Shown here: positions 1-63,300 of the stretch, one piece after another
Layout of the letters: each line of letters begins with the position of its first letter
Numbering within the stretch: the first letter of the stretch is position 1
DNA from: Gnetum montanum
Taxonomy: Eukaryota; Plantae; Gnetophyta
Reading direction: 5' to 3'
Assembly (NCBI GenBank): GCA_015680685.1
Contig: MNCI01002119.1
Coordinates: forward strand, 462,923 to 526,922
DNA length: 64,000 nt
Program-made: the position numbers and the translations under genes
The notes under the pieces: generated by a model
Told to the model about the DNA's origin: nothing
Databases searched by the model: none
What the model saw: only the letters and a program-made list of their open reading frames with translations

Positions 1-2956
1 GTTATCATCCTTACAACACATTGTACCTCGCGCGCCATGTGGCGATGTACTTTCAGAACCCATAGGGGACTGTCTACTGTATTGGTGGGTGCGTTTCATA
101 TCTTTACTTTGCTTGGTTGTGCAACATCGACCATGCTTGGCTGAGTGTTAATAGCATGTGCTTGTCACCAGGTTCTATCTTGATCACGGCGAGATTCATG
201 ATCAGCCGGGTGAGTTGACCACAACACAACTAGCCCTACAAGAATTTGCCTCGACCAAGAGCCTACGGGTGGGCATGATTGCTCATTGCAGGGAAGGATA
301 CCATTCCTACCTACACACACTCACCTCTCTCTACAGTATTTTTAGGATGAAGGGTTGGTTGGACAAGGAGTGGAGATAACCTTTTAAGCAGGTTACGCTC
401 GAAGCAGTCTTAACGGCTGAACTCCCACTATTCCCTTCACCATATAGACCTGGTGGGTTAACAAGCAGGCATCGCAGGCTCAATTTTTTTTCATAGTTTC
501 TTCTCTCTTTTATGCTAAGCATGTTTCATGATCCTTGCTGTAGAAGAAAAGAAGCCTCGTGAAGTGACGGTGGTGAGTGAAAAAAGACAAGGGGAAAACA
601 TCTACTTCAAATATGGTGAAGTATCAACAAGCCAGAGCTGGCTAGAACAAGGGGCTCTGGGCCCTTTGCTCAGAAGAATCTGGATGGCTGGGCTTATGAA
701 TTTTTTTATGATGCCGAATCTAGGCGTCCCTACTGCCGAGATGCTTTCCTTCATCAATTCATTTTCTAGGCAAGCGAGCCACTTTTGCACGTATGTGTGG
801 GGTGTGCGGGTGGTCATGGACATCAATGATAGCTATTTGCAGATTTTTTTGGCGTCCCTACTGATGGCGCCGATGTGATGTCAAAGGGCAAGCAACAATT
901 GACCCTCGAGAAGCAGCATATCGAGGAGTGGCTAAGGCTCACCAAGAAGCGAAAAGGGTTCCATATGGACAAGCTTAAGGATGGTCCTGTCATGAGGATA
1001 TACCTGATCTTTTGTGCCCGTGCATTCCCTCAACTGCTCACCCAAGGAAATGTCTTGGGGCTTGAGTAGGCTTGGGTAATGCGGGAAGTCGTGGAGGAAT
1101 GGGCCTGTTATAACTGGGCCGAGTTCCTATGTAGTGGTTTGTAGGGCGAGATTTTGGGGCTCCGTGAGCAAATGGAATCCCACTCTTACATACACTACGC
1201 TTTCTACATAGGCTATTTAAAGCGCTTTGCAAAGTTCCTGGTGGTCCAGGAGGATGGAGTCTAGTTCGAGCTAGATCGTGACCAGATTCTTAAGCCATGG
1301 ATTCGATAGGTCCTTCAGACCATGCAAGCCAAGGCTCCCCCGAAGATGGTCGAGGATTCGTTTTCTGTGACGACTAAAGATCTGGTAGTTCATAGCGCTT
1401 GCGGCCAGGACAGCGTAGGGGAGACCCCCCCTACCATACTTAGCCATGTGACACAGGGTGAACATCTTATGGCTGAGATCATACCCATGGAGTTGCGGAG
1501 AAAGAGACCTCCCCCAACTAGGGAAAGCCCTCATGAATAGGAATGAAGACTACGGTGAACGTAATCCCCCATTAGTGAGCGTTTAGGGAGCCTTCTATTC
1601 AATGCTTAGTTAGATAGTGCTTTGTAGCATGGTATTAGTTTTGAGTTAACCTATCTTGATTTGTTGTGTGTATACCCTTTTGCAGGCAGCAGAAGAAGAA
1701 GAAGAAGAAGAAGGTGACGAGGAAGTGTCGACCCTTAGAATGGGGGTGACAAATAAAGACGTGGAGGCCCTGACTTTGGAAGAAAGGGCCCTGGCTAGTA
1801 ATAATGGAGCTCTTGTCTCAAAGGCAAGGGCTCTTGCTATTAGGGAGCCTCTTCCTACCGACAAAGAGGTGCCTCCCCGAAATAAAAAAGACGCTACTCT
1901 CCTGAAAGGAAAAGCACCAGCACATGAGGTAGGAGTTTTTATGGACTTGGCTGGGCCTTCTACCAAACCTACCATGATCTTCTTGCACCAGCAAGAAACA
2001 AGACAACAGTCGGATGATGGTGAGTTTAGGCTTTGGATGTGCCCTACCGTAGTCCATTCCAGCCATTGCTGACATGCTTAATCATGTAACAAGTACTAAT
2101 GTTGATGTCTCAGGACCTCCTCCACCCCAAACGAGGTCATGAGTTGAAGTTCTTGACAAGTTTACGTTTTTTCATGGGCTTCTTGATGACATGGTCAAAT
2201 GCCTTCAGCAGGAGGATCCTTGTGCAGGTAAGTAGGAGTGTTGACAGCCCCTATGCTGCTACACTGAAACTCTTGAACATATTGATTTATGTCATGTTAA
2301 CGTGATTGTTACACTTTCTACGTTGAATAGCCTCTCGGCTTAACTGGGACCTGGCTCGACCTATGGAGATTGGCACAGTGCCCACACTCTCATCTGACGT
2401 GACTGAAGTGTCTTGTCGTATATTTGACAAGAATTAAAAATGTGTCTTGCACTCGACACGCTCTCTATGGGAATGTAGATGTACCAATGAGGACCTGTGG
2501 AAATGAGTCCATAGGGGCGAGCAAAGAGAGGCAAAACTGGTCACCGAGGTAGAGAACCTTAGGTCAAGGATCAATTTCCTCATAAACTGTAATCCTAACC
2601 CTGTTGATTTGCTGAACCAAGTGACAGGCGTTGGATGTATATTTTGATGGAGGAGATTGAGAGTTTTCTCAGGCTTGGTCTAGCCTAGATACCTCTTGTG
2701 ACCAACGTAGGATCCCCTTAGGTTAGTTACTTTAATGCTTTACTACAGCTTTCATTTATCGCATTTGTTGTCCCTACTAACTACTTTATTTTTTTGGGAT
2801 ACAGGCTCTCAACAAAGGTGTGAGGCCCGTGGAGGGAAGCAATGAGGTGTCGACATGGTGCAATATAGGAGCAGGCGATGCAAAAGTGAATGAAGTAGGG
2901 ACAAACGATGAAGGCGATGGGAATGGAGATAACTCATGAGATCATGGGGCTTGACT
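1..2956 (+). pseudogene. Antisense accessory gene of element A (end of exon 2 to last exon), degenerate
   Basis: Starts with ...YHPYNTLYLARHVAMYFQNP*GTVY, then exons homologous to copies B, C and D (KGWLDKEW; FKYGEV...; IFCARAFPQLL...YNWAE). GT-AG introns are present and there are several stops. Confidence 0.8.
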
Positions 2957-12141: not shown

Positions 12142-14908
12142 ATGGCACCTAAAGGAGAACGTAAGCACCAAGGACTTACTAAGGTGGATGAAGTCAAGCA
12201 CACTTTGGGGTGCCTGATCCAGGTGTGTGTTAAAGTGCTTGAGGAGGCTCTGTCTGCTCGGTAAGTTGTTGCACCGCCTTTTTTTCAGACTTCTACAATA
12301 GTTATTATTTGAAATCCACGTCTTTTACCATCTTTTTAGTCACCATTTTGGCTGCTATGCTACTGCTGTTGCTGGTTGGCCATAGCGGCTATACGAATGT
12401 TACGCTGTAGCTTCATGTGGTATTGCCTCGGCCGCCATTGTTGTGACTACCTTGTTGTGGGGGTTTGGGTGAGTCTTGACAGCTTAGCGCATGGTTAGCG
12501 TAGCGCGCTACCCTCAAGAGGGTTTGGCCACCTACATGATTTGACAAATGAACCACGTGTTTATTTTGGTACAATGCAAATTATTTTGTATGGCCGAATT
12601 ATAGTTGGGACAGTTGTAGTATAATAAATTCTTACTTGCTTGCGCTTAGTGTTTTTATTGCGGTATGCTTTTATGTCATGAGGTCATTAGGTTGCTCACC
12701 TTGCTATGTTGTTGAATCTGCAATATCGCTACGTTGCTTAATTTTTCTTTTGTTGATTTTGCCATAATGCTACGCTTGTCCTAGTGATGTGTTAGTTATG
12801 TCGTTGTATGGCTATATGTTCGCTTGTTCTTGTATATGTCATCTAAGTGTTGTTGCACTATGTGAAGCTTGATGACCATGCTATGCTGAAAGGCTTTCTT
12901 TTTTGTTGTTTGTTTGCACTGTGTTTGTTGCCTTTTATATATATATATATATATTTTTATTTTGCAACTAATGTAATCACGATACACTACATCCAATGAA
13001 AATGTAATGCTATGCTACACATAATCAAAGGGTCATGCTACACTATGTGTAAACTTTGCTTGTTCATTGTGCTAACGTTTGGTTCTTCGTTATGCAAGGT
13101 CATGTTGAAATCCATTTTGATTATCTTGGAGATCATAGGAGTCCTGTGTTGCCTTAGTGAACCAGTGGTCAATGTCCCTCCTTCCCACACATGTGTGGAG
13201 CAGCAATCGATCTAGTTTTGAGAGGGCATGTGGGACTTCCTACAGTTACTCCTCCAACACTTTAGTGTGATCGTCTAGTCACACTTGTCTGTGGAGACAG
13301 CAGCCACGATCACAAAAACCCTATTGCCTAGAGAAAATCAAGGTATTCTAAAATTTTTTACTGATGGGTTAATTATGGGCGAGCAAGGAGAAGGTTCCAA
13401 CCAACATCCAAAAAGCCTGAAACACTTAAGCTAGATTTGGGACATGCCCAAGTATAAGTGTTATCACTTATACAATACATTATTTGTTGCTCGTCACATG
13501 GGCACCTACTTTCAGAACCCACCTAGAACTGTTTATTTTGCCGATGGGTGAGTTGTACGAAGGTATTTTGTCATGTAATCTATGCTATGCTAGACACATG
13601 TATTAATAGTGTATTCATGCATTTTTGTGTGTTACCAAGTTTTTTATTGACAAAAGTGGTCTCCATGGTGACACTGATGCCTTGGCGTTGGCACAGATGG
13701 CCCTACGGGAGTTTTCCTCCACTAGGAATGTGCACATCGGCATGATAGGCGAATTTGGGGGTGAATTCTAAACCTATCCAACCCAGTATTCCGAATTTTA
13801 TGGGAAGTGTAAAGAAGCTGGTTGGTTGGATAGGGAATGGGCATCCCTTAGACTGCTCACTGTCAAAGACGTGTTGGTGGATCTCCTACCATTTCCCATG
13901 CCATTCAAATCTGGTATGCTAGAGTGCGAGTTCACTATTACTTGTTCGGATGATGTTTAGTTTTTGTTAACCCTCTTTTTTTTTTATTTTGTTTTGTTTT
14001 TTTTTTGTTTTTTTTTCGAATCATTTTAGTAGCAAAGAAATCCCAGGAGGTGACTATGATTGCCTCTAGGTGAAACGAAACCAACCTCTTTTTTAAGTAC
14101 GATGAGGTGGAGAAGACCCAATGTTGGCTTTGCAATGGGGCCCCAACCATGTCGATCCATAACCTTCAGGAGGTTGGGCTTATGGACGTATTTTTGGCTG
14201 TTAACCCAAGCATCCCACCTTCCGAGATGCTTTCCCTAACTAAGTCCTTCTCTGAAAAGGTAGACCGCTTCTGCACATGTGTTCACAATGTTCGTGTAGT
14301 ATTTGATGTCAATAATCAATTTTTGTAGATCTTTTTAGTGTTCCTTCTGATGGTCTCCCCATGGGAGAAAAATCCAAAAAAGATGCACACAATCAAGAGG
14401 ACATTGAGGAGTGGCTAGGGGCTGCAAAGAACCAAAAGGGGAACTATATGGAGAAAGCTAGGCTATGGGTGGCCAAAATGGTTTACCCTATCTTCCGTGC
14501 CCGCGCCTTCCCCAAGCTACTATCCCAAAGAAAAATCATTTAGATTAAGCAAGCTCGAATAATGATGGATATCATGGAAGAAGGGACCCGTTACAACTAC
14601 GCCAAGCATCTTTGTATAGGCATGCAGGCTTAAATGATTAAGCTTTGCGGGAAGAGTGAGTCCCATTTCAACGTGCACCATGTCTTTTTCATAGCCTGCT
14701 TATGGTGTTTCATAGAATTATTGGTAGTCCGCAAGAATGGGGTCTAGGTACTACAAGATCGTAACCAAATTTTTAAACCATGGATTTGCCAAGTCTTTCG
14801 TACCACCTGATCTCAGGATCCTCTGGAAGCTATCGGGGAATCATTCTCGATGACGACAAGGGATCATGTGGCATGCAACTTTTAGGCCAAGGAAAGTGTG
14901 GAAGAGGC

Positions 14909-14948
<40 letters not shown>

Positions 14949-30895: not shown

Positions 30896-30899
30896 CCTA

Positions 30900-33056: not shown

Positions 33057-33061
33057 GAAAT

Positions 33062-40629: not shown

Positions 40630-41867
40630 TGTACCGCTTGAAATTGTCGGTGTCCAGCTGGAAGGAAAAACAGAGACCGTGGGATCGCAGGGCGAGAACA
40701 GAAGACCCTGCTTTCGCCTGAGGGCGAGCTGGAATGCACGAAGGTAGAGTACCTTAGGTGGTCCGCATGCGGATCAGACAAGGATTTCCCCGCGCGTACG
40801 CAAAGTGCTATACGCTGGGTTGTGCGTAAACAATGTAGCTAGCATAAACAATGTAGCTAGCGTAAACAAAGCGTAAACGACGTAAAATAGATGCGAACAG
40901 AACGTGAGCGTAAATGGGCATAAACAGAATGCATGCGCCAAGTTGACATAAAACTGTAAACAATCTTAAGCAGCAAATGTAAATAATGGTATTACAGAGT
41001 CAAAGTACAGTGCACTGGTCAAACGCAGTCGTGAGGGAACACAAGGCAGACGAAAAGCCCCGGCATGTGCAGGAATGACTTGGCTGGTTCGCAAGGCAGG
41101 CGGAGCGTAGAGACTATGTGTATGGCATACAGGACTCTCCAGCGTAAGAGGGTTTCAGCTCTTGTGCGCAGTGTAAATGTTCTCTGGTATGCTCTGGGAT
41201 TTTGCCAACCGACTTGGGTGAAGTGAAAAATCGGGGTTTTTATACAGGTTGTTACGCTAGACTCGAATTGGGCGACACGTGGCGTGTTGATCGGGTGCAT
41301 ACATTTTACAAAAATACAATATATTACATCTGTTGGGCGTATACGCTGTGGGGCGGGCGTATACGCTGGGCGTATACGCTGAATGAGGCGGGCGTGTGAA
41401 CATGGATGGAGATGCTGAATGCTGGGCGTATACGCTGTGGATTTGAGCATACACGTTGGGCGTATACACTGATGGATGTGGGCATATACACTGATGGATG
41501 CCGACTAGCTTCAATTCTTGCTCTTCGGTGCCCTTCGAGATTCCATGTCGAGTGTAAACGATTACCGTGCCCGTCGAGCGTACACCGGGTGTGCGAGTTG
41601 GAATGCTTACGTTGGGGGTATACGCTAGGAATTCGAGCGTCCACGTTGGAGGGCGTATATGCTATGGGTTCGAGCATCTACGCTAGGGATGTACTTGAGC
41701 GTAGATGCTGAGCGTATACGCTGGCACTGCATACTTAGTGAAAATGAAGCTTTTTTGACCTCCAAAGTTGCAATGTGTGACGCCAAATGTAGCCATGGTT
41801 GTCTGTGGGTCTCAGGGACCGGCTTTTTGCTGGGAAAGTACAGAGCTCAGAATTTTGTGGTGTTTCA
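40630..41867 (-). repeat. 3' LTR of element C (1238 bp)
   Basis: TG/CA termini; roughly 90-95% identical by eye to 56392-57637. Confidence 0.95.
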
Positions 41868-41881
41868 TTGGCCCCTCTTTG
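41868..41881 (-). other. Polypurine tract of C
   Basis: Minus strand CAAAGAGGGGCCAA abutting the LTR. Confidence 0.85.
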
Positions 41882-42849: not shown

Positions 42850-43216
42850 GTTAGTTTATAGTCTTAATGGACTATCATGGGTTAGTTTTGTGTCGTAACC
42901 CGTTGGACATTACCTGTTTAGCGTCGTGGTGGACGTTACACTGCCAGTTTCTAGTCTTGGCAGACTGTAAAGAGGCAAGCCAGTTTATAGTCTTTGCGGA
43001 CCCATGGTGAATGCTACGATAGCAGTTTACTGTCATGCTGGACAGGTACTAGTTTGTCATCATTGCAAACACTGTGGGGTATCAGTTTATTGTTGTGATG
43101 CCAGGACAGTTGTGGTGTCAGTTTTAAGTCGTAACCCAGGACTATTCTGTGGTATCAGTTTACCGTCATGATTCCAGGATGAGCTATGGTATCAGTTTAT
43201 AGTCGTGATCCTAGGA
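42850..43216. repeat. Post-integrase hairpin-motif array of C (~11 copies)
   Basis: Collinear with D 38900-39230. Confidence 0.8.
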
Positions 43217-43242
43217 CTTGCATGTACCTGAGCGTATTCAAA

Positions 43243-45943
43243 CTTCTACCCACTTCGTGAAGTATTCTGTTGCGTTTATGATAAAACCATGCCCTGCAGA
43301 AGATGAGGGGGTTATTGGGTCGACGAGGTCCAATCCCCACTTTTGGAAGGGCTATGTGATTTGCGCTGTGTGCAACTCGTTTGTTGGTACATGTATTAAG
43401 TTACTATGTTTTTGACAGTCGTGTTCCATATACGGCCAATAGTAACCTAAACATCGTATTTTTGTTGCCATGGCTTTCAGTGCTATATGTCCTCCGCATA
43501 GTCCCTCATGCACCTAATCCACGATTGTTTGGGCATCAGTACTACTGACGCATGTCAGCAATATGCCTTCGTAGGATCTACGACACAATGTGTCCTCTAC
43601 TAGGATGTACTGCTTAGAACGTTTTCGTACAGCATCCTTTTGTGCATTTGTTAGATGTCTTGGTGCTTCCCCCCGTAGAAGGTATTCTTTTATGTCATCG
43701 TACCATTCTGTCGTGTGTGTTGTACTAACAGATGCAATAGGCAACGTGTCAAGGGTATCGGTGATTGGTTCAGCACAATTGGTTATAGAGCTTGGCAACA
43801 TGTGAAACATGTCGGGTGATATATTTAATGCTAAGGTTGCTAATGCATCTGCAATGGCATTGTCATTTCTGGAAACGTGTTGCATATCGATGCTCTCGAA
43901 TCGCCTCATTAGGTGCTTCACCAAGTCGCAGCATGGCTGTAGGTGTTAAGCTTTACATGTATAGACGTCGGTGACTTGGTTTAGGACTAGTTGTGAATCG
44001 CCTCCGACTATAAGCTGTGTGATGTCTGAAGCGAGTGCTGCCGCGAGACCTCTAAGGAGACCTTCGTACTCTACTATGTTGTTAGTATAATGGAAGTTGA
44101 AATGATATGCAAAGGGTTGGATCTCCCCGGAGGGATAGGTGACGACAGCGGCTGCACTTCCCCCTCGAGAGGTGGATGCTCCATCGAAGTTTAAAATGGC
44201 ATCGTAGCCATTGGGCACTATGTCTATTGTGTTTACATTTTCATCCAGAAATTCTGGCTCTATAATCATTTGGTCACGCGTTGGTGATGCGGCCATTTGA
44301 TTTGCTATGGCTTGACCTTTGATTGATGATTGCGCTACATAGTACAGGTCAAATTTGGCTATCATGGCTTTCCACCGAGCTATTCGGCTTGTTTCATAAA
44401 TGTTCCCTGTTATGGCTCTTAGTACATTGTCCTTGCAAATTATGTAAACCTGATTACGGAAGAGGTAATGCCACCATTTTCTTAAAGAAACGACCAAAGC
44501 TAAACATGACTTCTCCACGTCGTTGTACCTTTTTTCGTGGGCAACTAATGCGTGGCTCAAGTAATATACAGGGATTTCGGTTCCATCATCTTGTTTTTGG
44601 CAAAGCATAGACGCGATCGACGATTCCGAAGTGGCAAGGTAGATGTAGAATGATTGATCGCTTCAGGGCGGGTAAACCGTAGGTAGTCGGGAAAGTGCTA
44701 TTTTGATGTTTTCTAATGCTTCTTGGCACTGCAGAGTCCATTCATAATGGACATTTTTGCGCAATAGGTGGTTCATAGATTTTAGTTTTTCTGTGAGTTT
44801 TTCTATGAATCGCCTGATAAACTACAGTCTACCTTGTAGACCTCGAAGCTTGGTAAGGTTGCTTGGTGGTTTCAGGCTTGTTATGGCTTTGACCTTATCG
44901 GGGTCTACTCGTATCCCTGCTTTGGAGGCTATGAATCCAAGCATTTTGCCTGTTTTGACACCGAAGACACATTTTTTCGGATTAAGTCTTAGCTCGTATT
45001 TCAAACAACGTTTTAAGACTAAGTCGAGGTCCTGTACATGTTGTTCTTCCATTTTTAATTTAACCACAATATCATCCACGTAATCATTGAGTGAGTGTAA
45101 CAGGTAATCGCTAAAGATGAACGTCATTGCTCTTTGATACGTGGCCCCAGCGTTCTTGAGACCAAAGGGCATCATCGTGTAACAAAAGGTCCCCCATGGG
45201 GTCATAAAAGTTGTTCTAAGTTGATGTTCCGGATTAATACGTATCTGATTGTATCCTGAGAAACCGTCCATAAAAGATAATAAGGCATGCCCGGCAGTCG
45301 AATCAACGAGTTGATCGATACTGGGTAGGGGAAAGTCATCTTTTATGGTTGCTACATTCAGATCTCAGAAGTCAATGCATAGGCGAATGCTTCCGTTTTT
45401 CTTCGGGACAATGACCATGCTGGATACCCACTCAGCGTAATCAACAGCCCGAATGAACCCATCTTGATAAAGCTTGGTGATTTCATTGCGAACTGCCAAT
45501 GCCACCTCGGGTCTAACTTTTCGTGTCTTTTGCTTTATGGGTCTCAGTTTCGGGTCAAGAATGATGTTGTGCTGGACAATTCTAGGATCTAACTTGGGCA
45601 TGTCCGTATAGGACCAAGAGAATGCTTTCATATTTTCCCTAAGCACATTTTCAATATTCTTTGCTAATTGTGGTTGCAGTAATTTGCTCAATTTTAATAT
45701 TTTGATTTCCCCATCAGGCATGGTAATGGGGGTTTCAGCCAATGGATCTTCAGTGATATTTTCGGCCTCTATGTCAAGGAGCTTTGTTATGCCTCCATAA
45801 TCATCTTTTGTTTGTTGTGTTGAGGCTATGACTTCATTGTCCGTTGGTGAACTTAAGTCGATGAAATTTGTGTTAATGTCTCGTGTAATCTCGCCGTGTG
45901 GTCCGTCAATAATTAATGGTGCGATTAGATGTTGGCAGTCCAT
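43243..45943 (-). pseudogene. pol: pol of C: pre-RT extension, RT, RNase H, archaeal-type RNase H, truncated integrase
   Basis: IRLCIDF, MDGFSGYNQI, LNDYVDDIVVK, FDGAS...TNNIVEYEG...GDSQLV; frameshifts and stops; integrase deleted after FTKWVE. Confidence 0.94.
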
Positions 45944-46068
45944 TAAGCTTGCTCCTGCCAATAAACAGAGAGTGGAATAAGCACCAGGGGGAATCGTTCT
46001 ATGTTTTTTGATAATCTTGAACTGTGTGTACATGCATAATGGTGGATTATCATCACACCGGGATGCAT

Positions 46069-46139
46069 GGTAGTTTAAGGCCGTACCGGGCCGTGAGTGG
46101 TAGTTTAAGGCCATACCGGGCCATCAGTGGCAGTTTAAA
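46069..46139. repeat. Hairpin-motif array upstream of pol in C (GTAGTTTAAGGCC-N6-GGCC)
   Basis: 2-3 copies; D ortholog at 59865-59935. Confidence 0.75.
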
Positions 46140-46345
46140 ATAGAATGTTGAGAGTGAACGTGTAAAGTGGGGTCTACGTAATAATCTCTGGTTCTTAGTA
46201 ATTTTTATCATTTTTTATTATTTTTTTCAGGTAAATTTTAGTGAAAAATGAGCAAAAAGGCAAAAAGGCGAAAAAAGGAGCAACGGAAGCATAAACGATG
46301 ATGTCAGCGTCAGCGTCATCGTCAGCGTCAGCGTCAGTAGAGCGC

Positions 46346-46353
46346 TATATAAA
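46346..46353 (+). promoter_or_regulatory. TATA box of the antisense gene in C
   Basis: CTATATAAACAGGGGGG; D has CTATATAAAGGGGGGGG near 60139. Confidence 0.65.
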
Positions 46354-46584
46354 CAGGGGGGGTCCATTTGTTTTACTTTGAAAGCGACAGCATGAGCGAC
46401 AGCGTAAACTGTTAAAGCGTAAGCGTAGACGATTGTGCCCAGTGTAGACGCCGACGACAAACCCTAGCATAGACGCCAAGCACTTAAACCCCAGTGTAGA
46501 CGCCAAGTGTGAACCTTCAGGCGCCGGCGTAGACAGTTCTTCTTTTCGGCGTAAACTCGCATAGTCAGCGTAGAGGAGACGGAG

Positions 46585-49500
46585 ATGGGCAAGGGAAAGG
46601 AAGTGGAGGGCCAGGGGAGAAAGGATCCTGAGTTGACCTTCGCGGAGGAGACGGAGGCTATGCTGTAGGGCCTGCCCAGGCCAAGGCTCCCGTCATGGCC
46701 CGTGACATCTCACAGGTAGGCTCTGATCTCTGCTTCCGTTGTGATTTCTTTTGCTTCCGTAGCGTAGACAATCTCGGCGTGACGTATGAGGTTTTGTGGC
46801 GTACACTCCGAGTGTCGCTTTATGGTGTAAGGTTTTGCCAGCGTGATTTTCTTATTTTAACAGCGTAAGTTTTGTTTACTATGACGGCATATACGTTGAG
46901 GGTTTATTCGGTGTATACGCTATGTGTGTACAGTTATCTTTCCGACGTGATTGTAGTTTTCATCTTTCTGGCGTAAACTTACTCGTTCGGTGCTTGCGTA
47001 GACTGTTTACACTGAACGCGAACTTAGGTGTGTACGCTGAGGATTCCCCCGGTGTATACAAAGGTTTAGGCGTCGGCATAAATCAGTTCATTGTCGGCGT
47101 ATATGCTGAGTTGGGCAGTGTATACGCTCAGTGCACAGCGTATACGCTGAGGTCAAGCAACATTTTACGCTAACTGTTTAGCGTATACGCTGAGGTCGAG
47201 CAGCATTTTATGCTAAGTGTTCAGCGTATACGCTGAGGTCAAGCAGCGTTTTACGCTAAGTGTTCAGCGTATACGCTAAGGTCAAGCAGTGTTTTACACT
47301 AAGTGTAAAATAATTTTTCCGGCGTGTACGCTGGTTTGTGTGGCGTATACGCTGAGTGTAAACAGTTAATGAACTTTGGGTTTTGCATGTCAGTTTATAA
47401 CTTAAACTTCCTCTTTTTTGAGCTAATCTATCGTGGCATTATGATTGTTTTCAGGGACAGTAAGCGTTTCCTCATCGTCGTTGAGCTGGTTGGGGTGTTA
47501 TCATGGGTGGGCCCTATTGAAGATGGCGAGGTTCCCCCGGATCTAACCATGGATGAAAACGGGGTTTGGTTCAGGGAAGGCGCTAGCAAATTTCTGGCTT
47601 TCCTGTTAAACAATTTCAAGGTGGCCATCTGGTCAAATTTTAATGAAGTGATTGCGTGAAGCGTGCTTGATGCAATGTTGCCGGGAGCTGCAGAGGGCGT
47701 CATGGTCTTCATAGAAGACATTGACGAGGGACCTCTTGTGAACGAGGATGGCACTACCTGTGGGCCCAGGTCCACACGCCCATTAACGCGTGTGTGGGTA
47801 CTTTTGCCACGAGGGCTGGATTACCTCAACAATACATTGTTCATAGCTGGCCGTACACATACATTATTCCAGAACCCTCCCAGCATGGTGTATCGAGTGG
47901 CCAGGTAGGAATATTTAAGTTTACTATTTCCGTTCGCTGTTTAACGTTTGTTTCTTGTTTTGACCCATGTTTGCTTACAGACCAAAGACCAACCCAGATG
48001 GGACACTCATTGAAGATGAAGGATTAGCCCTTGCTCGCACTACCCTGGAGGCATTCATGATGGGCCCCACCCTTCGTGGGACCGTACTGAGTCAAACGAA
48101 GGTTTCGATGGTCCATTTTCACAATCAGTTCTTCAGAGCATTTGCGATGTGCAAAGCTCATGGGTGGCTTCATGAAGACTGGACAGATAATGGGCTGGTT
48201 TTCCCTCGCGACTTTGGCAGCACATCGAAATCTACCACTAACGGTAAATGATAACCTTGCCTAGATACGCTGGTGGGTTTATCTAACTGTTTGGAGTTAT
48301 GCTGATATGACCATTTTAAATTGCTTCCACAGTTAATGTGCCTTCTGGTGAGGATCCTGTGACAACAGGGCGAACTGAGACCACTCTGTCAATGAATTTT
48401 GGGGAGGTGGTTAAGGTGCAAAGTGGTTGCATAGGCAAGCTCTAGCATCCCTCACCCGTTGCCTAGATGATGCCAGCCTCATGGAGCTCTTTATGACGCT
48501 GAGTCCAGATGTATCCATCGGGGAAATGATTGGGATCGTGGACTCTTTCAATGAGTCTATCTCACACTACAGCACTCGGATCAAGGGTGTCAAGGTAGTT
48601 TTTCAGTTGTCGCCCGAGTTCTTTTTGAACTTATTTGACGTGCCGGCAGATGGTTTAACTATAGTATCAGACAGAACCCACAAGGAGCTCCAAACGATCC
48701 GCGAGTTGGAAGGTTGGCTAGGCATGGCCAAGGGTACCAAGGGATTCCCGATGCAGGGGAAGGGAAAACTTATGGCAGTGAACGAATTGTATCCCCTGTT
48801 CATGGCGCGGGTGTTCCCTAAAACCCTTTCCCAAGTGAGATGTCTTGGGGTTGAGGCTGTTCATGTTATGCGAACTGTCTTGGAAACGGGCATGTGGTAT
48901 AACTGGGCCCAATCTTTGTTGTCGGGTATGCGCAAGGAGATAGTGAGATTGCGTTCGAACACTGAGGCGCAGTCCCATTTCACTTTTGCATTCTTCGCCG
49001 GTTACCTGCGTTGTTTCGCCGAATTTCTCATAGTTCGTGGAGACAACAAGTTTGTTCTGCGAGATCAAGATCAATTATCCCACCCGTGGGTCAATCATTT
49101 ATTTGATACAGCTAAATCCCAAGACACACCTGAAGGCATTGATGAATCAACTTCTATTACTACGGGGGGATCATCTGGCGCTTCGATCCACACACACGAC
49201 AGCTTGGGGTTGGAGCCAGAAAACGTACCCCTTACTACTAGAAGGGCGGAGCGAGTTATCAAGGAGACCATCGTCCAAGCCAAGTCAAAACTAAAGAGGC
49301 CTGAATGCCCGAGTGAGGAAGTCTCCGATGAGAACCAGCCACGGGTGAAGCGCATTCGTTTTAAGATGCCTGGTAAGCGAAGCTCACCCACTCATGGTTT
49401 TATCATTTTCTCGTTTTGTTTATAACTTTTACTTTAGTCACTTACATGTCATTGCTATTTGGCTCAATTTGTTAAAAGTGAGGAAGCAGGCTTTAGAGAC

Positions 49501-51058
49501 CATCACTAAGGAGGAGGAGACCTACATGGAGAAGAATAATGAGGAGTAGAAAACAGAGAAGAATCAGGGTGGAGGAACGGAGGAGTTAAAAGAGAATACC
49601 TCAGAAACAGAGCCATTGGATGATCAGGATGGTATCAACCAGATGTTCAGCAGCTTTCTCAAGGGAGACCTGGATTTGGGCGACCCCCCAGATGGTGACA
49701 AGGATCATGGTATATTTTCATTTTATTTTAACTTGTCTTGTTAACTGTCATTCCTACTACATCTTGTTTACATTTTTTCATTTTTTTTGTGTTGTGGACG
49801 AAGGCAGTGAGACCAGAACGGTGCGTTTAGATGTACCCATGAAGATGGTTCCTCCTGAGAGGACTACCGAGGTTAGTTCCCACACCCGTGAGCCACTTGC
49901 TTGGTCGGAGGTGCCAAGTAAGATGGATTTCGTGGCTGGACTCGCAGAGGAGATCGTTGAACGGATCCAAGAAGCGCACCCTGATATAATTATAAACCGT
50001 TTGAAAGTTTGTAGTTTCATATCTTGTTTATACGATTCTTTGTTTTTGACACTTATATGTTTCGCGTGGGTAGGTGCTCAATTGAAATGGGATCCTTTTG
50101 AAAGTATCGGAATAGAGGGTTTGACAACGCTTTCCCCAGAAGTGGAGCAAGTGCCAAGGCCTGTTTACGAGGGAGTCATGGAAGGCTTTATGCACAGCGC
50201 TAAGTCGCTATGGACTTGTAGGCTTTCCATCGAATGGTTTTGGCTGCAGATACAGGCAAAAGAAAAGGCCATGTCTAAGTTGTCAGCGGAACGTGATGAT
50301 CTGAAGGCTCGGTACGAGTTCGCCGCTGCTAGACTAAGCAGAGATCCCTCCTGGCGAAAGTCTGAGGTTACGTATACTAGGTATTGGGATCTATTGAATC
50401 GTCATGCGTCGCTGACTCAGAGGATTGCAGAGCGCAAAGCCCAAATTGATCTCCTGAACCTTAAATGTCAAGATTGAAAAGCCTTCGCTTCCAAGGTTCA
50501 TAAGTGGGGTCAGGACGAGAAGAACCATAAACATTACTATAAGAAGTCATTAAAAGAGGTGTCTATCGAACAGCGCCAACTACAAATGTTTGTGGAAGGC
50601 TTAGGTTTGCATTCAGCCTTCGATACTTTTGCTCAGAATACAACTGTGGAGATGGAGTCGCCTACAAGGGTGATCACTACTGCTTCTGGAGAAACATTGG
50701 TCGGTGAGTTCCCTCTAAGACGTCCTACCTGGTCGGCTATCGATAAAGGTAGGGTTTTAGCAGACGTCGACTTAGGCCTCAATGGGACAGATTGGGCCAG
50801 CGTTCCAAAAGAAGAAATCCTTCATCGGCTAGAATTCAGCTTAGGGGGATCTCCTGCGGTAAGCCTTTTGTGTTTACGAAGTTAATTAATTGAATAACGT
50901 TTAAAATTTTGACATGTGCTTATTCTTATGTCGATTGTTCGTTTTGGTGCTTTCAGGATGAAGGTGGCAATGATGCCCAAGAAGCTGGCCCCAGTGGAGC
51001 AGGGGCCCTTGAAGCTAGCGGGTCCAAAGGGGATGATCCTCCTACCCCGGATGTTTAA
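46585..51058 (+). pseudogene. Antisense 8-exon accessory gene of C: FCP1/SCP(NIF)-like pseudo-phosphatase + plant transposon domain + acidic region + coiled coil (~1060 aa when repaired)
   Basis: Exons 46585-46715, 47455-47904, 47981-48243, 48333-49372, 49479-49709, ~49799-49988, ~50074-50858 and 50957-51058. Splice phases are consistent and exon lengths 131/450/263/1040 match D (131/450/263/1041). A few stops, one frameshift and two decayed splice sites. Confidence 0.85.
47136..47306. repeat. 43-bp tandem repeat x4 in intron 1 of the antisense gene, each with the AGCGTATACGCT palindrome
   Basis: Units at 47136, 47179, 47222 and 47265. Confidence 0.9.
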
Positions 51059-51371
51059 TGTGTTGATTTTTAAGTTTTTGCTGCTTCGTTTTTGACTCAG
51101 ATTTAAACGGGGATTGTGACTTGACACTTTTAAGATGGATGAAAACTGTTGAAACTTATAATTGTACAACATTGTATGTAAGAAATTTTTTGTTGATTTT
51201 GAGTTTAATTGTGAACACGACACTGAGATATAAACTGTTTTGATTTGTTTTTTGAGTTTAACTGCACATGCGACACGATAATGTAACATGTCTTTGCATT
51301 TACTTTTCTATTTTAAGCATAGTGTACTGGAGTGATTAGAGATGAAATGTGAAAAGGAAAACAAAATACGC

Positions 51372-51670
51372 ACTAGTTTAAGGCCATTTCGGGCCTTTAT
51401 GCGTAGTTTAAGGCCATTTTGGGCCCCGTCGTAAACAAGCAATACTTTGGATAAAGTGGGTAAATTTCTTGGTGGACCGACCATCTCTGGTCATGGCTAG
51501 TTTTATGTCATTGCGGACATGTTCTAGTTTAACGTCATTTCGGACTGCATATAGTTTAACGTCATTTCGGACGAGGAGTATTGTTTGATTTTCGTTTTTA
51601 CATATTTTTTGTGTTTTGGGCTTTATCGTAGTTTAACGTCATTTCGGACAAAGTGTAGTTTAATGTCCTG
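51372..51670. repeat. Hairpin-motif array at the 3' end of gag-pro in C (~7 copies, GGCC and CGTC stem types)
   Basis: tagtttaaggccatttcgggcc and tagtttaacgtcatttcggacg. Confidence 0.85.
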
Positions 51671-54600
51671 CAGTGTATCAGCTGGTATGATTTTGTACTC
51701 AGTGTCCCCTTCGCTGATCACGTTGAACGGCAATTCAGTCCAGGAGACGTCCGATAGAATGTTTTCGGTATCGGTATTTTCAGGTGCTTCGGTGTCCGTC
51801 GTTGTTTCCGTGTTGGTTTCTTCATGAGGCGATGTGTGTAGAGTGTTAGATGTAGGTGTTTCAGTTTTAGGAGGCTCTTGTCTCATGTTCGAAGGTTTAC
51901 TCTCCACCAGTTGTAGTTTGCTTGTGTCATTAAGCTTGTCAAATTCAACCTCGAAGCCTTGGTCCATATCTGTGTGCGATGAAATGACTGGAGTGGTTAC
52001 TTCCCCATGTATGATGATTTCACCGCCCTCATAGGGTAGGTGAATCTCTTGATGTATAGGGGAAGAAACAGCTCTCAGTTGGGCCAACCAGGGTCTTCCT
52101 AATATTAGGTTGAATCCTGGCATTTCATCGACAACCAGAAAGTCAGCGGATGTGGGGAACTGGTCTCCCGCTATGAAATCTAAGGTTATCATGCCTTTGA
52201 CCAGTACACGTGACCCGCTGAATGACTTTAAACATGTTGTTGTTGTAGGTTTAATTAAGTCAGTAAACCCCAGTTGTTCAATGATGGGATATAGTACAAC
52301 GTTTGTGGCCGCCCCATCATCTACATGGACTCTATGTATTTTGAACTGGTTTACTTATATTGTTATGAACATGGGGATTGTTGTTGTCTCCCCTGTCTTC
52401 TTGTCTACTTTGATGTTATCATCGTGGAAGCTCAAGGGTTTAGGGATGGCACCGTGGGATGGATACATTACGGCATGAATGGCAAGTTCGCTCGGGGGCA
52501 AGTCCTCACTGACCGGGATCGATGTTAGCATGCGTACGAGAGCTTCCCGATGAGTTTGGGATGTTAACACCAAGTCATACAAGCTTAAAGAAGTGTTCTT
52601 TTGCTTCAATTCTTGGGTGACTTGTGTTAAAGCTATCGCAAAGTCTCTACTATTAGGGAGGCTCTTATCAGCGATGACTAGGTCCATTGGGCCCAACAGC
52701 TTTATTTCGTGTCTCGGCGGCCTATCATTCTCGCTCGTTGTCGTAGTTTTGGCTGGTTCATGTTGTTTTGATAGTTCACCCTGACTACCTACGTCTGACT
52801 GATTGTTAGTTGGTGACATAGGTATGGAATTGAGTGGAGTAGGCTTAGGTGGCTCTAGAGCTAACAGTTGGTGTTCCTTCTCCAGGCGTTCACGCGTAAG
52901 CCTATTGGCTAAACGTTCTCGCGTGTGGCGTGGAGGTGGAGCCGGTCTCGGAGCCTCAGATTATCTTGGGATGTGCACCACGTATGGAGGCGGGCGGGAT
53001 TGCGGTTGGTCAGTGGGAGGCATTTGAGCTGAAGGCTGGCTAGGGACCCTAATGATGTAGGGGCGAGGTTTGTCTTGTGCCTGTGAGGTGGAGGTTTGAC
53101 AATCGTTAGGATTTTCAGATGTCCTAACAACATACGGGGTTGGTTTCAGTGGAGGTTGGACCTCCGCTATTGCGATGGTTGGTGGTACTCAGACTACGAA
53201 GGGGGCAGGCCGAGTATGAGGGGTTGGCAGCTTTGAGGATGTAGATATGGCTGAAGGTATACGGATGACATAGGGCCGCTGGGGGGCGCGTGGTGGTTGA
53301 TGTGTGGACGTGAAGACAGCGGGAGGAATCCGAACTACGAAGGGTCTACCCGGTGTTTCATGTTTATGCTCAGGGTAAATGGTGTTGATGTTAAGCATCT
53401 CGGGATCCTCATCAAAGCATATTGTGCTAATAACGTATGGTGCCTCGTTGGCATTCAGAGGATCTTTGTAAACCCCCATGGCCTGATTCTGCGGATGGAC
53501 CAGGTTGGCCTCATCAAAAGTGATTTGGCCATTGTTGATCATCCGTTGGATATCCTACTTCAAGGTGAAGCAGTAATCCATTCCGTGCCCATTGCGTTGA
53601 TGGTAGTCACAGAAGCGATCGATCCTAAAGCCTTTGGGTATGGTCGGCTCATCCAGCGTTGCTAAGCCTGGGTTCTGTACGAGTTGGCAAAACCAGTCAT
53701 GTCTTTGGATAGCCGCAGGGGATAACTGCTTATGTTTCATCAGCCTAGCTTTCAGGAGTTGATCAAAGAGCTAGGATGGTTTCATAGGTAGAGGCGTATA
53801 TTGAGAGGGTTCTTTTCTCTCGAAATTCCGTGTACGGTTTGTTGGATTCTGCGATGATGATGACTCCAGGGCTGTTGTGGGGGCAGGTTTATTGTAGTTA
53901 GTAGGGGCTGCAGGTGGTTTTTGTTGGTGTGTGATGTTCATTTATTGGGCTCCTATTGCTGCTATAGTGGTTTTGGCCTTCTCTTTATCTTTTTTACTGT
54001 GTTGATTTCTGAAGGCCAAGTATGTCGAGTCGTGGATGTTTTGAGCCACCTCCTCTATGTTTTTGATTTGCACAAATGCTTAGTTAAGGTCACACATGTT
54101 GAGGTAATACAATTTAGATTTGAAGAAATCATTGATAGCCCCCTTGAAAATCGTAAGTAGATAAGTTGGAGAGATTGGTTCGTGTAGCTCGTTGAGAGCG
54201 GCACTCCATATCTGAATAAACTTTTGTACAGGTTCAAGCGGTGCTTGCTTGACCTGCATAAGGCTGTCCAGCATGGCCTCGGGTTTCAAGTTGTACTTGA
54301 ACCGGGTCACAAATAGGTGTAAAAGATCCTTCAAGGAGAAAATAGAGTTCCTGGGTAGGGCCCGGTACCAGTCGAGTGCTTTCCCTATGAGGGACATGGG
54401 GAACACTCGAAGGATGGCATGGGGCCAAGCCTGGAGTAACGCGCATTCTAACCTAAACGTTATGAGATGTGCATTGGGATCTGTCTCTCCATTATACTTG
54501 GTTAGCGTGGGTAAGGAGACACCTTTAGGTAAGGTTAGGTGTGGGACTGAGGAGCTGATGGGATCATCATTGTAGAAGTCCACCACCTTCAGCTCTCCGT

Positions 54601-55771
54601 CAGCGGCCGTTTTGAGGTGCTTTACCTCGTTAGTAAGCTCCTGCATTAATTTCTTGGTGTCCACCTAGTCTTGTGCACTCGGTAACACAGTGGCTTGGGG
54701 TTGTGGTATATTATATAGGTTAGATTGTTGTATGGTAGGCTAAAAGGCCTAAAGCTACGCGGTCAGTGGTTGCGCTTGTGGAAAGTTTCCAGTGGGCGGT
54801 ACTACGGATGTCACGTTATAGGGGAAAGATGGTTGTTGTTGTAGCTGCAGCTGGGGCTGTGTATGGGGAACATTGGTTGGTGGAACTACATGAGATGGCA
54901 CATGGTGGTGGGGGATTTGATACGACGACATTCCCCTCGCTGGCCATTGCCCTGCCATGTTGTGCGCGGGGACTCCCTGTTGGGTCACGGCTGTTTGAGG
55001 AACGGTATGCATTTGGATGTGCGGTATGAAGTGAGCGGATGTAGATGCCGGGATCACATGTGGCATTCCTATCACTTGGGGTGGGAGTGTCACTTCCATG
55101 CTATCATGAGGGGGAGGTGCTTGGGAAGATGGGCCAACCGCTTCCTCGGGGATGATGGTGAGAGGGAACGTGCTGAATTGCAGATCAGTTGGAGGTGGCA
55201 CATGAGTAAATGAGGATGTGTGCGATGGAGGCATTTGTGTATGAGTTAGTCTAAGGGGTTGGAGGGGTATGATCTCCCCTGTGTCTGGATGAAAAATGGG
55301 ATTAGCATGTGCTTGCGGGCTGAGAGTGTGGTAGGAGTCCTCATGTTCTGATTGAGTAGTGAAGTCATCCTCTTCCTCTAGTTGGGTCTCTGGTGCACGC
55401 TGACTTAGCGTGTGGCTCCTTTGCAGGAGGAGTCATGTGACGAGTTCCGAGTACTGCTCTGGAACTAGGATTACATCATATGTGGAAGGGGTGAACTCAT
55501 GTCCTCCCCTGTAAAAGAATTCGAACTGTCTCTTTACCTCCAATTCGGCTCGGTCTACAGCCAGGCCAGCTTGTATCTTAATGCATATAAAATTATACTG
55601 ATCTTGGGTTATGATGTCAGAGGCCGGGTCTCTCCCTTGCAACCTTAGGGATTGGCGGGGCCCTGCGGTGGGTTGAACTCCCGGGTGTTGCGTGACAGGC
55701 TATTGGACAGCCATGGTGTCCATGATGGGGGTGGTTTGAGTCATGGAAGCGTTGCTGTTTGCGGGGTTCAT
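51623..55771 (-). pseudogene. gag: gag-protease of element C (stops and frameshifts)
   Basis: ORFs 54080-54664 (gag core), 53555-53740 (FCDYHQRNGHGMDYC), 52355-52819 and 51623-52192 (protease; VHVDDGAATN between them, FNLILGRPWL). Confidence 0.92.
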
Positions 55772-56369: not shown

Positions 56370-56386
56370 CCCTCCTTCTAGTGCCA
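56370..56386 (-). other. Primer-binding site of C (tRNA-Asn-like)
   Basis: Minus strand TGGCACTAGAAGGAGGG, 5 nt after the LTR end. Confidence 0.85.
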
Positions 56387-56391
56387 ATTTT

Positions 56392-57637
56392 TGTACTGCC
56401 TGAAATCGTCGGTTTCCGACTGGAAGGAAAAACAGAGATCGTGGGATCGCAGGGTGAGAACAGAAGACCTTGCCTTCTCCTGAGGGCGAGCTGGAACGCA
56501 CGAAGGAAAAGTACCTTGGGTGGTCCGCACGCAGATCAGACAAGGATTTCCCCGTGCGTACGCAAAGTGCTATACGCTAGGTTGTGCGTAAACAATGTAG
56601 CGAGCGTAAACAAAGCGTAAACGGCGTAAAACAGATGCGAACAGAGCATGAGCGTAAATGGGAGTAAACAAAATGCGTGCACCAAGTTGACATAAAACTG
56701 TAAACAATCTTAAGCAGCAAATGTAAATAATGGTATTACAGAGTCAAAGTACATTGCATCGATCTAACGTAGTCGTGAGGAAACACAAGGCGGACGAAAA
56801 GCCCCGGCGTGTGCAAGAATGACTCGGCTAGTTCGCAAGGCAGGCGGAGCGTAGAGACTGTGTGTATGGCATACAGGGCTCTGCAGTGTAAGAGGGTTTT
56901 AGCTCTTGTATGCAGCGTAAATGTTCTCTGGTATGCTCCAGGATTTTGCCAACCGACCTGGGTGAAGTGGAAAATCGGGGTTTTTATACAGGTTGTTACG
57001 CTAGACTCGGGTTGGGCAACACGTGGTGCATTGATCGGGTGCATACATTTTACAAAAATACAATATATTACATCTATTGGGCATATATGCTGGGCGTATA
57101 CGTTGTGGGGCTGGCATATACGCTGGGCATATACGCTGAATGAGGCGGGCATGTGAACTTGGGTGGAGATGTTGGATGCTGGGCGTATACGCCCAGCGTA
57201 TATGCTGTGGATTTGAGCATACACGCTAGGCGTATACGCTGATGGATATGGGCGTATACGCTGATGGATGCTGACTTGCCTCAATTCTTACTCTTCGGTG
57301 CCCTTCGAGATTCCGTGCCGGGCGTAAAAGTTTGCCGTGCCCGTCGAGTGTACACCGGGCGTGCGAGTTGGAATGCTTACGCTGGGGGTATACGCTAGGA
57401 ACTCGAGTGTCCACGCTGGAGGGCGTATATGCTATGGGTTCGAGCATCTACGCTAGGGATGTACTTGAGCGTAGACGCCGGGCGTATACGCTGGCACCGC
57501 ATACTTAGTGAAAATGAAGCTTTTTTAACCTCCAAAGTTGCAATGTGTGACGCCAAATGTAGCCATGGTTGTCTGTGGGTCTCAGGGACCGACTTTTTTC
57601 TGGGGAAGTACAGAGCTCGGAATTTTGTGGTGTTTCA
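56392..57637 (-). repeat. 5' LTR of element C (1246 bp)
   Basis: Pairs with 40630-41867; followed on plus by TSD GCTAA. Confidence 0.95.
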
Positions 57638-60399: not shown

Positions 60400-63300
60400 A
60401 TGGGCAAAGGCAAGGAAGTGGAAGGAAAGGGGAGGAAGGGTCCGGACTTGACCTTCGTAGAGGAGAGCGAAGCCATGCTGCAGTGCCTACCCAGGCCAAG
60501 GATTCTGTCATGGCTTGGGTCATCACACAGGTAGGCTCTTATCTTGCCTCTATTAGTCATTTTTTCTTATGCATGTTTCATAGCGTAGACAGTCTCGTAG
60601 AGGGCTTTGGTGTATATGCCGAGCGTAGAGAGTTAGCGTAGAGGGTTCTCGGCGTATACGCCGAGCGTAAATTCACAGCGTAAAGTCTCAATAGCATAGA
60701 CTATCAGCGTAATCTGTTTTATCAGTGCACAGCGTAAACACTTTCCTTGCACGCAGGATAGATGATTGTATCAGTGTAAACTACGGCATAATAAGTTTCC
60801 TATGCATGGAGTTTTGTTTTATCAGCGTAGACGATCTACGCTGTGACGGCGTATACGCTGAGGGTTTCTACAACGTAGATGCTGAGCGTGAAGAGTTGAT
60901 CCTTTTCAAGCATGGTACAGCATAGACATATTTTCATGTTTTCAGCGTAAACTATTTGTTCAGTGTCTAGCGTAGACCATTTACGCTGGAGGCTCCTATG
61001 GCGTATACGCTGAGGGTTTCTAGTGCATATACGCTGAGCATAAATAATATGGTCGGCAGCGTAATCAGTTCGTTGTTAGCGTATACACTGGACTAGGCAG
61101 CATATAAGCTAAGCGTCAACAGTTGACAGTGTATACGCTGAGCGTAAACAGTTGACGGCGCATACGCTGGGTTAAGCAGTGTATACACTGAGAGTAAACA
61201 GTTAGCCATTTTTTTGAGTGTTGGTCTACGATGTGAACTTTTGTTTTTCAGGTCGTTTTGATGCATGGTTGATTTATTGTGGCATCTTGATTACTTGCAG
61301 GGATAGTAAGCATTTTCTCCTCATTGTTGAGCTCGTTGGGGTGCTAACATGGTTTGGCCCCATTGAGGCTGATGAGCCTACCCCAGATCTAACTATGGAC
61401 AACAATGGGGTCTGGCTCAGAGAAGGTGTGTGTGAATTGCTGGCCTTCATGCTAGACAACTTCGAAGTGGCGATCTGGTCGCAACTAAGTGAACTGGTGG
61501 CGCGAAGTGTACTTGAGGTAATGCTGCCGGGAGCTGCGGAGGGTGTCATGGTCTTCATAGAAGACATTGACGAGGGGCCATTTTTTAATGAGGATGGTTC
61601 TACCCGCGGGCCCAGGTCTACACGCCCGTTAGCACGCGTGTGGGCACAGTTGCCACGAGGGTTGGACTACCTCAACAACACTCTATTCATAGCTTCACAC
61701 GTGCACACGTTGTTTCAAAATCCCCTTGGCACCGTGTACTGGGTGGATAGGTAGGACCGTTTAAGTTTATTGTTTCTATTCACCATTTGGCATTTGCTTC
61801 TATTCTGACCTCCGTTCGTTTGTAGGCCTAAAGTTAACCCGGACGGGACATGCATTGAGGACGAAGGACTTGCTCTTGCTCGCACTGCTCTAGAGGCTTT
61901 TATGGTGGGTCCCACCCTTTGTGGAACTGTATTGGGTCAAACGAAGGGCACAATCGTTCATTTTCATAAACAGTTCTCTAGAGCCTTCGCGATGTGCAAA
62001 GCTCGTGGGTGGCTACATGAAGACTGGTCAGACAATGGAGCAGTCTTCCCTCGTGACTCTAGCAGCACATCCAAGTCCACCACTAACGGTAAATGACAAC
62101 ATTTCCTAGATATGTTAACATGTTTGTTTAACTACCGAGAGTTATACTGATATGACAATCTCAAATTGCACTTGCAGTTGATGTACCTCCTGGCGGGGAC
62201 CCTATCACAACTGGGCAAACTGAGACAACCCTGTCAATGAAGTTCGGGGAGGTGACTAAGGCTCAAAAATGGTTACGCAACCATGCCCCTCCATCTATTA
62301 GTTGTTGCTTAGACAATGCCAGCCTTATGGAGCTCTTCACGACCCTGAGTCCCGATGTATCTATAGCAGAAATGATCGGGATCGTGGATTCCTTTAATGA
62401 GTCTGTCTCCTACTACAGCACCCGGATTAAGGGTGTTAAGGTAGTTTTCCATCTGTTGCCTGAATTCTTTTCAAACTTATTTAGGGTACCGAAAAATGGC
62501 ATAAATGTAGTTTTAGACAGGGCTCATAAAGAGCTCCAAACGGTGCGTGAATTGGAGGACTGGTTGGGCATGGCCAAGGGTGCCAAGGGATTCTCGATGC
62601 AGGGGAAAGTAAAGGTTGAGGAGGTAAATGAACTGTATCCCCTATTTAGGGTGCGGGTATTTCCCAAAACCCATTCCCAGGTACGGAGTCTTGGGGTTGA
62701 GGTTGTACGTGTCATGTGAACTATCCTGGAAACTGGAATGCGCTATAACTGGGCTGAATTTTTGTTGTCCAGCATGCACAAGGAGATAGTGCAATTGCAC
62801 TCGAATGTCGAGGTGCAATCCCACTTCACCTTTGCCTTTTTTGCTGGTTACCTTCGTCGCTTTGCCAAGTTTCTAGTAGTTCGCGCAGATAACAAGTTTG
62901 TTCTACGGGATCGGGGTCAACTATCTCGTTTGTGGATCAATCACTTATTTGAAACAGCCAAGTCCCAAGATGCTCTTGAGGGCATTGATGAGTCTGTGTC
63001 TATTATGACAGGGGGATCATCGAGTACCTCAATTCATACTCGCGATAGTTTGGGATTAGAGCCAGATGATGTGCCTCTCACTGCAAGAAGAGCTGAGCGA
63101 GTTATCAAAGAGACTATTGGCCAGGCCAAATCGAAATTGAAAAGACAAAAACGCCCAATTGAGGAAGTCTCAAATGTGAGCAAGCCACGGGTGAAGCGTA
63201 TATGATTCAAGATGCTTGGTAAGTAGACTTAGCCCGCTTATTTTTTTATTGTTTTCGTTTTGCTCATAATTTTTTCTTCAATCACTTACATGTCACTGAT

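Follow-up and report, generated by a model that had tools for sequence, protein, structure and literature searches.

A predicted pseudo-phosphatase domain in an antisense accessory gene of Tat-type retrotransposons

The elements and their antisense gene

The extra open reading frames (ORFs) of plant Gypsy elements are mostly without recognisable origin or function. The window analysed here, a stretch of 64,000 nucleotides, contains Ty3/gypsy LTR elements nested in one another, with their coding sequences on the minus strand, and each of the four copies designated A to D carries a multi-exon gene between protease (PR) and reverse transcriptase (RT), on the plus strand and thus opposite to the coding strand of the element (Table 1). 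Element C, which spans 40630-57637 and is inserted inside element D, shows the features of the Tat clade, namely the order RT-RH-aRH-INT, TG...CA LTRs and a target duplication. Its gag, PR, RT, RH, additional RH and INT correspond to Tat structure #1, which is reported from most land-plant groups (PMC10508981). The protease ORF of C gave no Pfam match.

Table 1. Positions of the element parts and of the accessory gene in the window
Feature	Position	Strand	Remark
5' LTR of element C	56392..57637	-	TG...CA; PBS-like site adjoins
3' LTR of element C	40630..41867	-	88.5% identity to 5' LTR; 5-bp target duplication
gag of C	54080..55432	-	Retrotrans_gag E 2.4e-7
Protease ORF of C	51623..52354	-	D-G-A motif; tblastn matches to loci
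RT of C with its N-terminal region	44822..46123	-	conserved acceptor-like site near 45957
RNase H, then additional (RVT_3-type) RNase H	43946..44662	-
Integrase, N-terminal part, of C	43244..43945	-
~21-bp unit array, RT side of C cassette	46068..46138	.
~21-bp unit array, protease side of C cassette	51375..51650	.	same unit as on RT side
TATA-like box of C, predicted internal antisense promoter	46346..46353	+	read from sequence; putative function
TATA-like boxes in other copies	D about 60140; B about 12003	+	read from sequence; putative function
Exon 1 of C, ATG and short basic N-terminus	46585..46715	+	one stop in C
Exon 2 of C, NIF/HAD pseudo-phosphatase core	47455..47904	+	one stop at 47657-47659
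Motif I equivalent in C	47483..47491	+	E-L-V for D-x-N / D-x-D
Motif IV equivalent in C	47846..47851	+	A-G for D-D
Exon 3 of C, closing helix of HAD fold and extension conserved in A-D	47981..48244	+
Exon 4 of C, conserved domain, then basic NLS-like stretch	48333..49372	+	frameshift near start in C
Exons 5-6 of C, acidic linker	49477..49981	+	borders approximate; by inspection
Exon 7 of C, coiled-coil-like	50074..50858	+	by inspection; one stop in C
Predicted last exon of C, to stop codon	50957..51058	+	predicted from sequence
Exon 2 of copy D	61301..61750	+	open; gene starts 60400, LTR cuts at about 63838
Exon 2 of diverged copy B	about 13099..13547	+	four stops
End of exon 2, copy A	1..88	+	motif IV A-R; motif I outside window

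PR and RT, which occupy separate ORFs, lie 6,646 bp apart in C. Of 80 RT-related metagenome loci, 39 had both domains, and in these the distance was 526-3,372 bp; the best identity among the 80 loci was 60-62%, and none of them contained a homologue of exon 2 or exon 4. A pyrimidine-rich, splice-acceptor-like site lies upstream of RT, just inside the RT-side ORF, at 45957 (minus) in C and at about 59760 (minus) in D, and suggests that pol is reached via splicing out of a 5-6 kb intron containing the accessory gene. Since C and D share this site, the cassette is probably located within a PR-RT intron of the Ogre kind; in Ogre elements themselves these introns are reported to average 274 bp (PMC6317226). 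No RNA joint across the proposed PR-RT intron appeared in four RNA runs of low depth. Arrays of the ~21-bp unit also occur at 3139, 11640-11742 and 17057-17113, so that the cassettes of B and C have them on both sides and that of A has them on the one side within the window; they are possible binding, packaging or recombination sites.

The accessory gene is predicted to have eight exons and about 1,000 codons. The borders of exons 5-8 are approximate and the NLS and coiled-coil labels were assigned by inspection. The coordinates given for exon 2 of C in the sequence-only reading are exact: AG precedes 47455, GT follows 47904, and the reading frame continues from exon 1 and into exon 3. Its single stop, which that reading did not mention, is best taken as a lesion of copy C, as D has no stop at this place and the codon is altered in many contigs of the family. 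The predicted protein runs from a basic N-terminus through the HAD domain, the exon 4 domain, a basic stretch and an acidic linker to a coiled-coil-like tail. Exon 4 matched neither Pfam, PF10536/DUF7745 included, nor any homologue in a word-indexed search; its structure model reached a pLDDT of 34 and its hhalign comparison with six Ogre-type ORF1 rows scored no better than shuffles. A weak lead came from the Atlas, which linked exon 4 to plant clusters; one of these, at a score of 0.81, has PMD in 18% of its members, and PMD is a tentative candidate identity for exon 4.

Several other observations in the window and the loci may be recorded here. One metagenome locus (L022:3695-7067) has a PR-RT gap of 3.4 kb, twice the usual, and is without an exon 2 or exon 4 homologue. 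Long repeat arrays with 29-bp and 15-bp periods, partly inverted and with stop-free repetitive frames on both strands, occupy 26300-30900, and a further related element in opposite orientation lies at 31733-36634 (LTR about 31.9-33.1 kb, gag 34.1-35.7 kb). Another LTR (63838-64000) lies inside the accessory gene of D; the family repeatedly self-nests. A run of 39 C at 14910-14949, inside exon 4 of B and ending at the single N of the window, is probably an assembly artefact.

A NIF/HAD domain with degenerate catalytic motifs

On the sequence comparisons, exon 2 is a NIF/HAD domain and its similarity is more than chance. In support of this we found that: (i) NIF (PF03031) was the sole Pfam family that any of the three copies C, D and B matched (with E of 0.0021, 0.0013 and 0.069, respectively), although the scores of 18.8, 18.2 and 13.3 bits all lie below the 21.8-bit gathering cut-off; (ii) a profile built from the three TE rows alone (C, D and B) and run against 1.84 billion representative proteins gave 29 matches at E up to 0.001, 28 of which are NIF above the cut-off and the remaining one a fibronectin repeat artefact, with a best E of 1.5e-7 over profile positions 3-146 and no match at 1e-10; (iii) all 30 Atlas matches were NIF, the top one scoring 0.93 with 196 of 256 features shared (recognition 3774); and (iv) the structure model (pLDDT 74.5) matched SCP1, SCP2, FCP1, Tim50 and UBLCP1 in Foldseek (E 7e-7), aligning best with SCP2 (Z 15.3, rmsd 2.5, 165 residues aligned) and then with SCP1 (Z 15.0), Tim50 (Z 13.7) and UBLCP1 (Z 12.6). 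The model is not independent of the sequence result because its alignment held 19 of these homologues. In the model the HAD fold runs on into exon 3 (helix 188-206). The NIF ancestry and HAD fold claimed from the letters are thus borne out, and so are the open exon 2 of D and the quoted motifs, which were found in the translations of C (47456-47905), D (61302-61751) and B (13102-13548) and, for copy A, in that of the exon end within the window (15-77).

Against this, neither the TE-only profile nor P0001 found a NIF protein among PDB sequences, giving chance matches only. Word-indexed homologue searches, viral contigs and NCBIfam yielded nothing for exon 2, and the scanned exons held no UBL, BRCT or dsRNA-binding domain. 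We also considered exon 3 as the C-terminal extension of D-x-N proteins and rejected it as not significant, 2 of 40 shuffles having scored higher.

The first Asp is reported to be the nucleophile and to work with Mg2+ (PMC7281111). At motif I this Asp is Glu in all three copies that show it (ELV, ELV and EII in B, C and D); read with the next residue the motif is E-L-V-G or E-I-I-G and never DxDx(T/V). At motif IV, where the copies read AG, AS, AR and AR, the D-D pair is replaced by A followed by G, S or R in all four. Given the role of the first Asp, catalysis is predicted to be lost, and the domain would be enzymatically dead, without Mg2+ or phospho-aspartate chemistry; we regard the pseudo-phosphatase call as strong. 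As claimed beforehand, the loss predates the subfamily split, since B is 33-35% identical to C and D and all share it. The fold residues were likewise said to be kept, and 22 of the 33 columns that are at least 70% conserved in 34 homologous domains are indeed retained in at least one TE copy, mostly hydrophobic or structural ones. The other 11 are lost in all three TE copies and include D10 (E), N12 (V/I), S61, D131 (A), D132 (S/G/R) and K136 (T). The motif II Ser (S60, 3/3) and a motif III basic residue (R/R/K at 108) persist, and these may still hold phosphate.

We give very little credence to the reading that the domain has stayed catalytic by a changed mechanism, using a Glu nucleophile or working independently of metal. 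This reading draws on the carboxylate kept at motif I, on the retained Ser and Arg/Lys and on a His near motif IV in some copies; yet no copy has either of the motif IV acids or the motif I +2 residue, the His is inconsistent from copy to copy (H/R/H, H/H/G), and the residue exchanged at motif I is precisely the Mg2+-dependent nucleophile described above. In the 40 family variants listed for four DNA runs (269 more exist), the codons for the motif I Glu and for the first residue of motif IV are unaffected, and the variant often seen at the second residue of motif IV encodes something other than Asp; a rare Asp form may exist in the family.

Degeneration of this kind is not unique to the TE domain. 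Four of the six tandem-NIF proteins among the matches have a degenerate second domain, and in one case motif I of that domain has Glu while motif IV reads E-N. In the plant tandem-NIF proteins P0004, P0005, P0013 and P0015 the catalytic motifs of the second domain are degenerate, and some of these proteins are fused to DUF724. These proteins lend something to the idea that the TE domain is a structural or oligomerising module without an outside ligand, or that it pairs with a host D-x-N phosphatase as such a degenerate second domain might, and the broad loss of active-site polar residues with the core kept fits it too. The TE-specific invariant surface-type positions E41-G42, F138-Q139 and Y146, seen on comparing three copies, suggest instead a selected new surface, and we consider a purely structural role, or such a pairing, unlikely.

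With regard to the subfamily from which the domain derives, 27 of the 28 NIF matches read D-x-N-G at motif I and one reads D-x-D-G (two spurious P0019 segments and a duplicate P0017 fragment were left out of this tally). The TE motif E-L-V-G-V-L retains the G-V-L of the D-x-N-G subfamily, and the two share motif order and spacing, W-S at motif II, L-x-x-x-W, N-T-L and N-P. The TE domain differs in having E for D, V/I for N, A-x for D-D and T for K, in sitting in a retrotransposon gene and in having no relative at E below 1e-10 among the proteins searched. Members of the subfamily that could be named (10 of the 29 matches were looked up) come from Sphagnum, Asteraceae, Actinidia, chytrids and a red alga, and the Atlas NIF clusters come also from large DNA viruses. 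The best solved sequence relative of the D-x-N-G family is UBLCP1 (E 7.8e-13 versus 8e-7 for SCP1), which is also the only match for P0003, although the structural ranking given above is reversed, SCP2 and SCP1 standing above UBLCP1. From these comparisons the ancestor would have been a D-x-N-G (UBLCP1-like) protein rather than an SCP/FCP1 CTD phosphatase. A search by gene identifier for papers on the function of the D-x-N-G subfamily found none among titles and abstract openings.

The subfamily bears on the emphasis of the sequence-only reading, which had put forward the phospho-CTD of RNA polymerase II, or CPL-type phosphatases, as what the dead domain would read or decoy. SCP1 and SCP2 are the top structural matches, the domain retains Ser at motif II and Arg/Lys at motif III, and LTR elements are reported to be Pol II transcribed (PMC7264820). 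Yet 27 of the 28 NIF matches are of the D-x-N-G and not the DxDx(T/V) type, and UBLCP1 reportedly acts on the proteasome subunit Rpt1 (PMC5451543). UBLCP1 (3shq) and SCP1/SCP2/FCP1/CTDNEP1, while sharing the HAD Rossmannoid NIF fold, keep DxDx(T/V) and the motif IV acids, whereas the TE domain has neither these nor the CTD groove of SCP1: by a rough offset mapping from the motifs, the positions matching the groove residues Phe106, Tyr158 and Arg178 (as named in PMC7281111) are P/P/E, V/I/T and I/I/F-or-gap. This want of a counterpart to the groove lowers the phospho-CTD idea, which we therefore hold to be improbable, and the CTD link of the domain is weak.

The domain had also been described as a captured host phosphatase. 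NIF ancestry stands, as set out above, but a host donor does not follow from the tree, in which the rows of C, D and B group together (support 100/99) and their long branch arises from the poorly resolved base of the tree, outside the land-plant D-x-N clade. Because the tree did not place the TE clade we claim no plant or viral donor, and capture from a host is a putative event.

Selection, abundance and transcription

Exon 2 is, on codon comparison, under purifying selection. By the Nei-Gojobori method, uncorrected for transitions, and for one pair, C versus D, its dN/dS was 0.147 (149 codons), as compared with 0.19 for exon 1, 0.10 for exon 4, 0.088 for RT and 0.20 for RH-aRH; comparisons with B and A were saturated. 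Selection on the accessory gene is thus as strong as on parts of pol. In the same pair exons 2 and 3 are 76-80% identical and introns 1-3 64-70%, and among the family variants listed 22 of 38 were synonymous versus 31% expected (p 5e-4). With this low ratio (about 0.15) and the same position in all four copies, the description of the domain as TE-borne and retained holds up. It counts against our best explanation that each of the four window copies has stops or frameshifts somewhere in the gene.

Contigs matching exon 2 numbered 1,930-2,593 per run in all four DNA runs (three studies, three organism labels), which shows a large family and is not a copy number. Expression was sampled in four RNA runs, at 2% or 26% of each. 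RNA depth on exon 2 was about 1x and came mostly from diverged copies; the oligo-dT runs gave exon 7 reads, again from diverged copies. Also counting against the proposed gene, these four shallow runs gave no reads across the predicted accessory-gene introns. In run X11 the first mate lay on the minus strand for about 90% of depth from 47545 to 56448, the RT side being mixed, and this strand signal is not assignable to accessory mRNA because the cassette and gag alike show the predominance of a single read direction.

Possible function and related systems

We lean, somewhat beyond an even balance, toward the possibility that the accessory protein is a nuclear regulator which acts in trans and in which the dead HAD domain is there to bind and not to catalyse. 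In such a scenario, an internal TATA promoter of the antisense gene carried by this Tat-type Ty3/gypsy family would drive a spliced accessory mRNA of roughly 1,000 codons, and the introns would survive retrotransposition because they are antisense in genomic RNA. The HAD domain would bind a protein partner, and the nuclear protein would act in trans, supporting the element's own expression. Nuclear location and action in trans are suggested by inspection of the predicted protein and by analogy with related elements; the partner could as well be a chromatin or proteostasis factor as Pol II. A role as trans-activator or anti-silencing factor would be plausible.

There is precedent for both halves of this model. 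Yeast Tim50 is described as a dead NIF, with motif and activity lost, that is used for binding (PMC8346121); it resembles the TE domain in its NIF core and lost catalytic motif, but it is a host mitochondrial import receptor and not TE-borne, and its loss is independent. Antisense extra ORFs are known from Tat elements and have been proposed as regulators (PMC7264820, PMC11963269, PMC4408406), and the Grande product GENE23, made from its own promoter, is reported to be nuclear (PMC7264820). Retand TRP28, Grande gene23, TatIII PMD and Ogre ORF1 are like the present gene in their Tat-type host element, antisense orientation, predicted own promoter and combination of an unknown domain with a coiled-coil-like tail. 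Their positions differ, however, being either ahead of gag or in the interval from pol to the 3' LTR and not between PR and RT, and they lack the approximately seven introns and the NIF domain of the present gene. No Transposase_28 (PF04195) match was found in the latter and it does not lie between pol and the 3' LTR, the position by which Retand is recognised; nor does C have an ORF of at least 120 aa between 55432 and the 5' LTR, where the Ogre extra ORF, upstream of gag, would be expected.

Grande GENE23, the one antisense product that has been localised, also bears on a contrary proposal in which the protein acts in the cytoplasm or the particle (RNA packaging, RT or integrase chaperoning, integration targeting) and not on transcription. 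The same-unit arrays flanking the cassette on both sides in B and C could be RNA as well as DNA binding sites, and a coiled-coil-like C-terminus would suit such a protein; set against the nuclear precedent and the basic NLS-like stretches found on inspection in exons 1 and 4, we think this quite unlikely. A more specific version of the regulator model, in which the dead HAD domain traps a host phosphoprotein (a substrate of a D-x-N phosphatase) while the exon 4 domain tethers it to element repeats and silencing is thereby countered, is one that we put forward as a tentative conjecture, itself unlikely as worded. If it were true, no pseudo-phosphatase effector would have been known from an LTR retrotransposon before this one, which would also offer a way into what an orphan phosphatase family does, and the Tat lineage would have evolved a retrovirus-like accessory gene hidden antisense in the PR-RT intron.

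Host-type domains fixed in accessory proteins of plant TEs are known in other forms. An orchid Gypsy ORF carries an AlkB domain reported to be active (PMC9289625), whereas catalysis by the TE NIF domain is predicted lost and the fold differs; the VANC anti-silencing proteins derive from captured host folds, and ATLANTYS elements have captured domains (PMC13547354). In Arabidopsis, MAIN/MAIL1-PP7L and MAIL3 pair PMD with phosphatase in host silencing (PMC7156037, PMC5418596). This is a conceptual parallel only, a phosphatase-fold domain and a TE-related domain meeting in TE control, and it differs in the PPP fold and in being made of host genes.

Our literature search, which covered article listings and texts, found no earlier report of a NIF domain in LTR elements or of an accessory gene at the PR-RT position. 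The NIF accessory gene is apparently undescribed and is a variant of the Tat accessory-gene theme. In the Neumann survey, extra ORFs are classed solely as 5' or 3' of the polyprotein (PMC6317226); the PR-RT position with antisense-kept introns falls outside these classes, and screens by ORF length would miss it. The present ORF combines a traceable enzyme ancestor with a clear pseudoenzyme signature and an abundant family, so that a TE accessory protein becomes directly testable, and it could reveal the ligand of the uncharacterised D-x-N NIF family. One further protein deserves mention: P0027 (912 aa) has a D-x-N NIF fused to a weak Ulp1-type protease match (E 0.0085) and may be a second TE-borne NIF.
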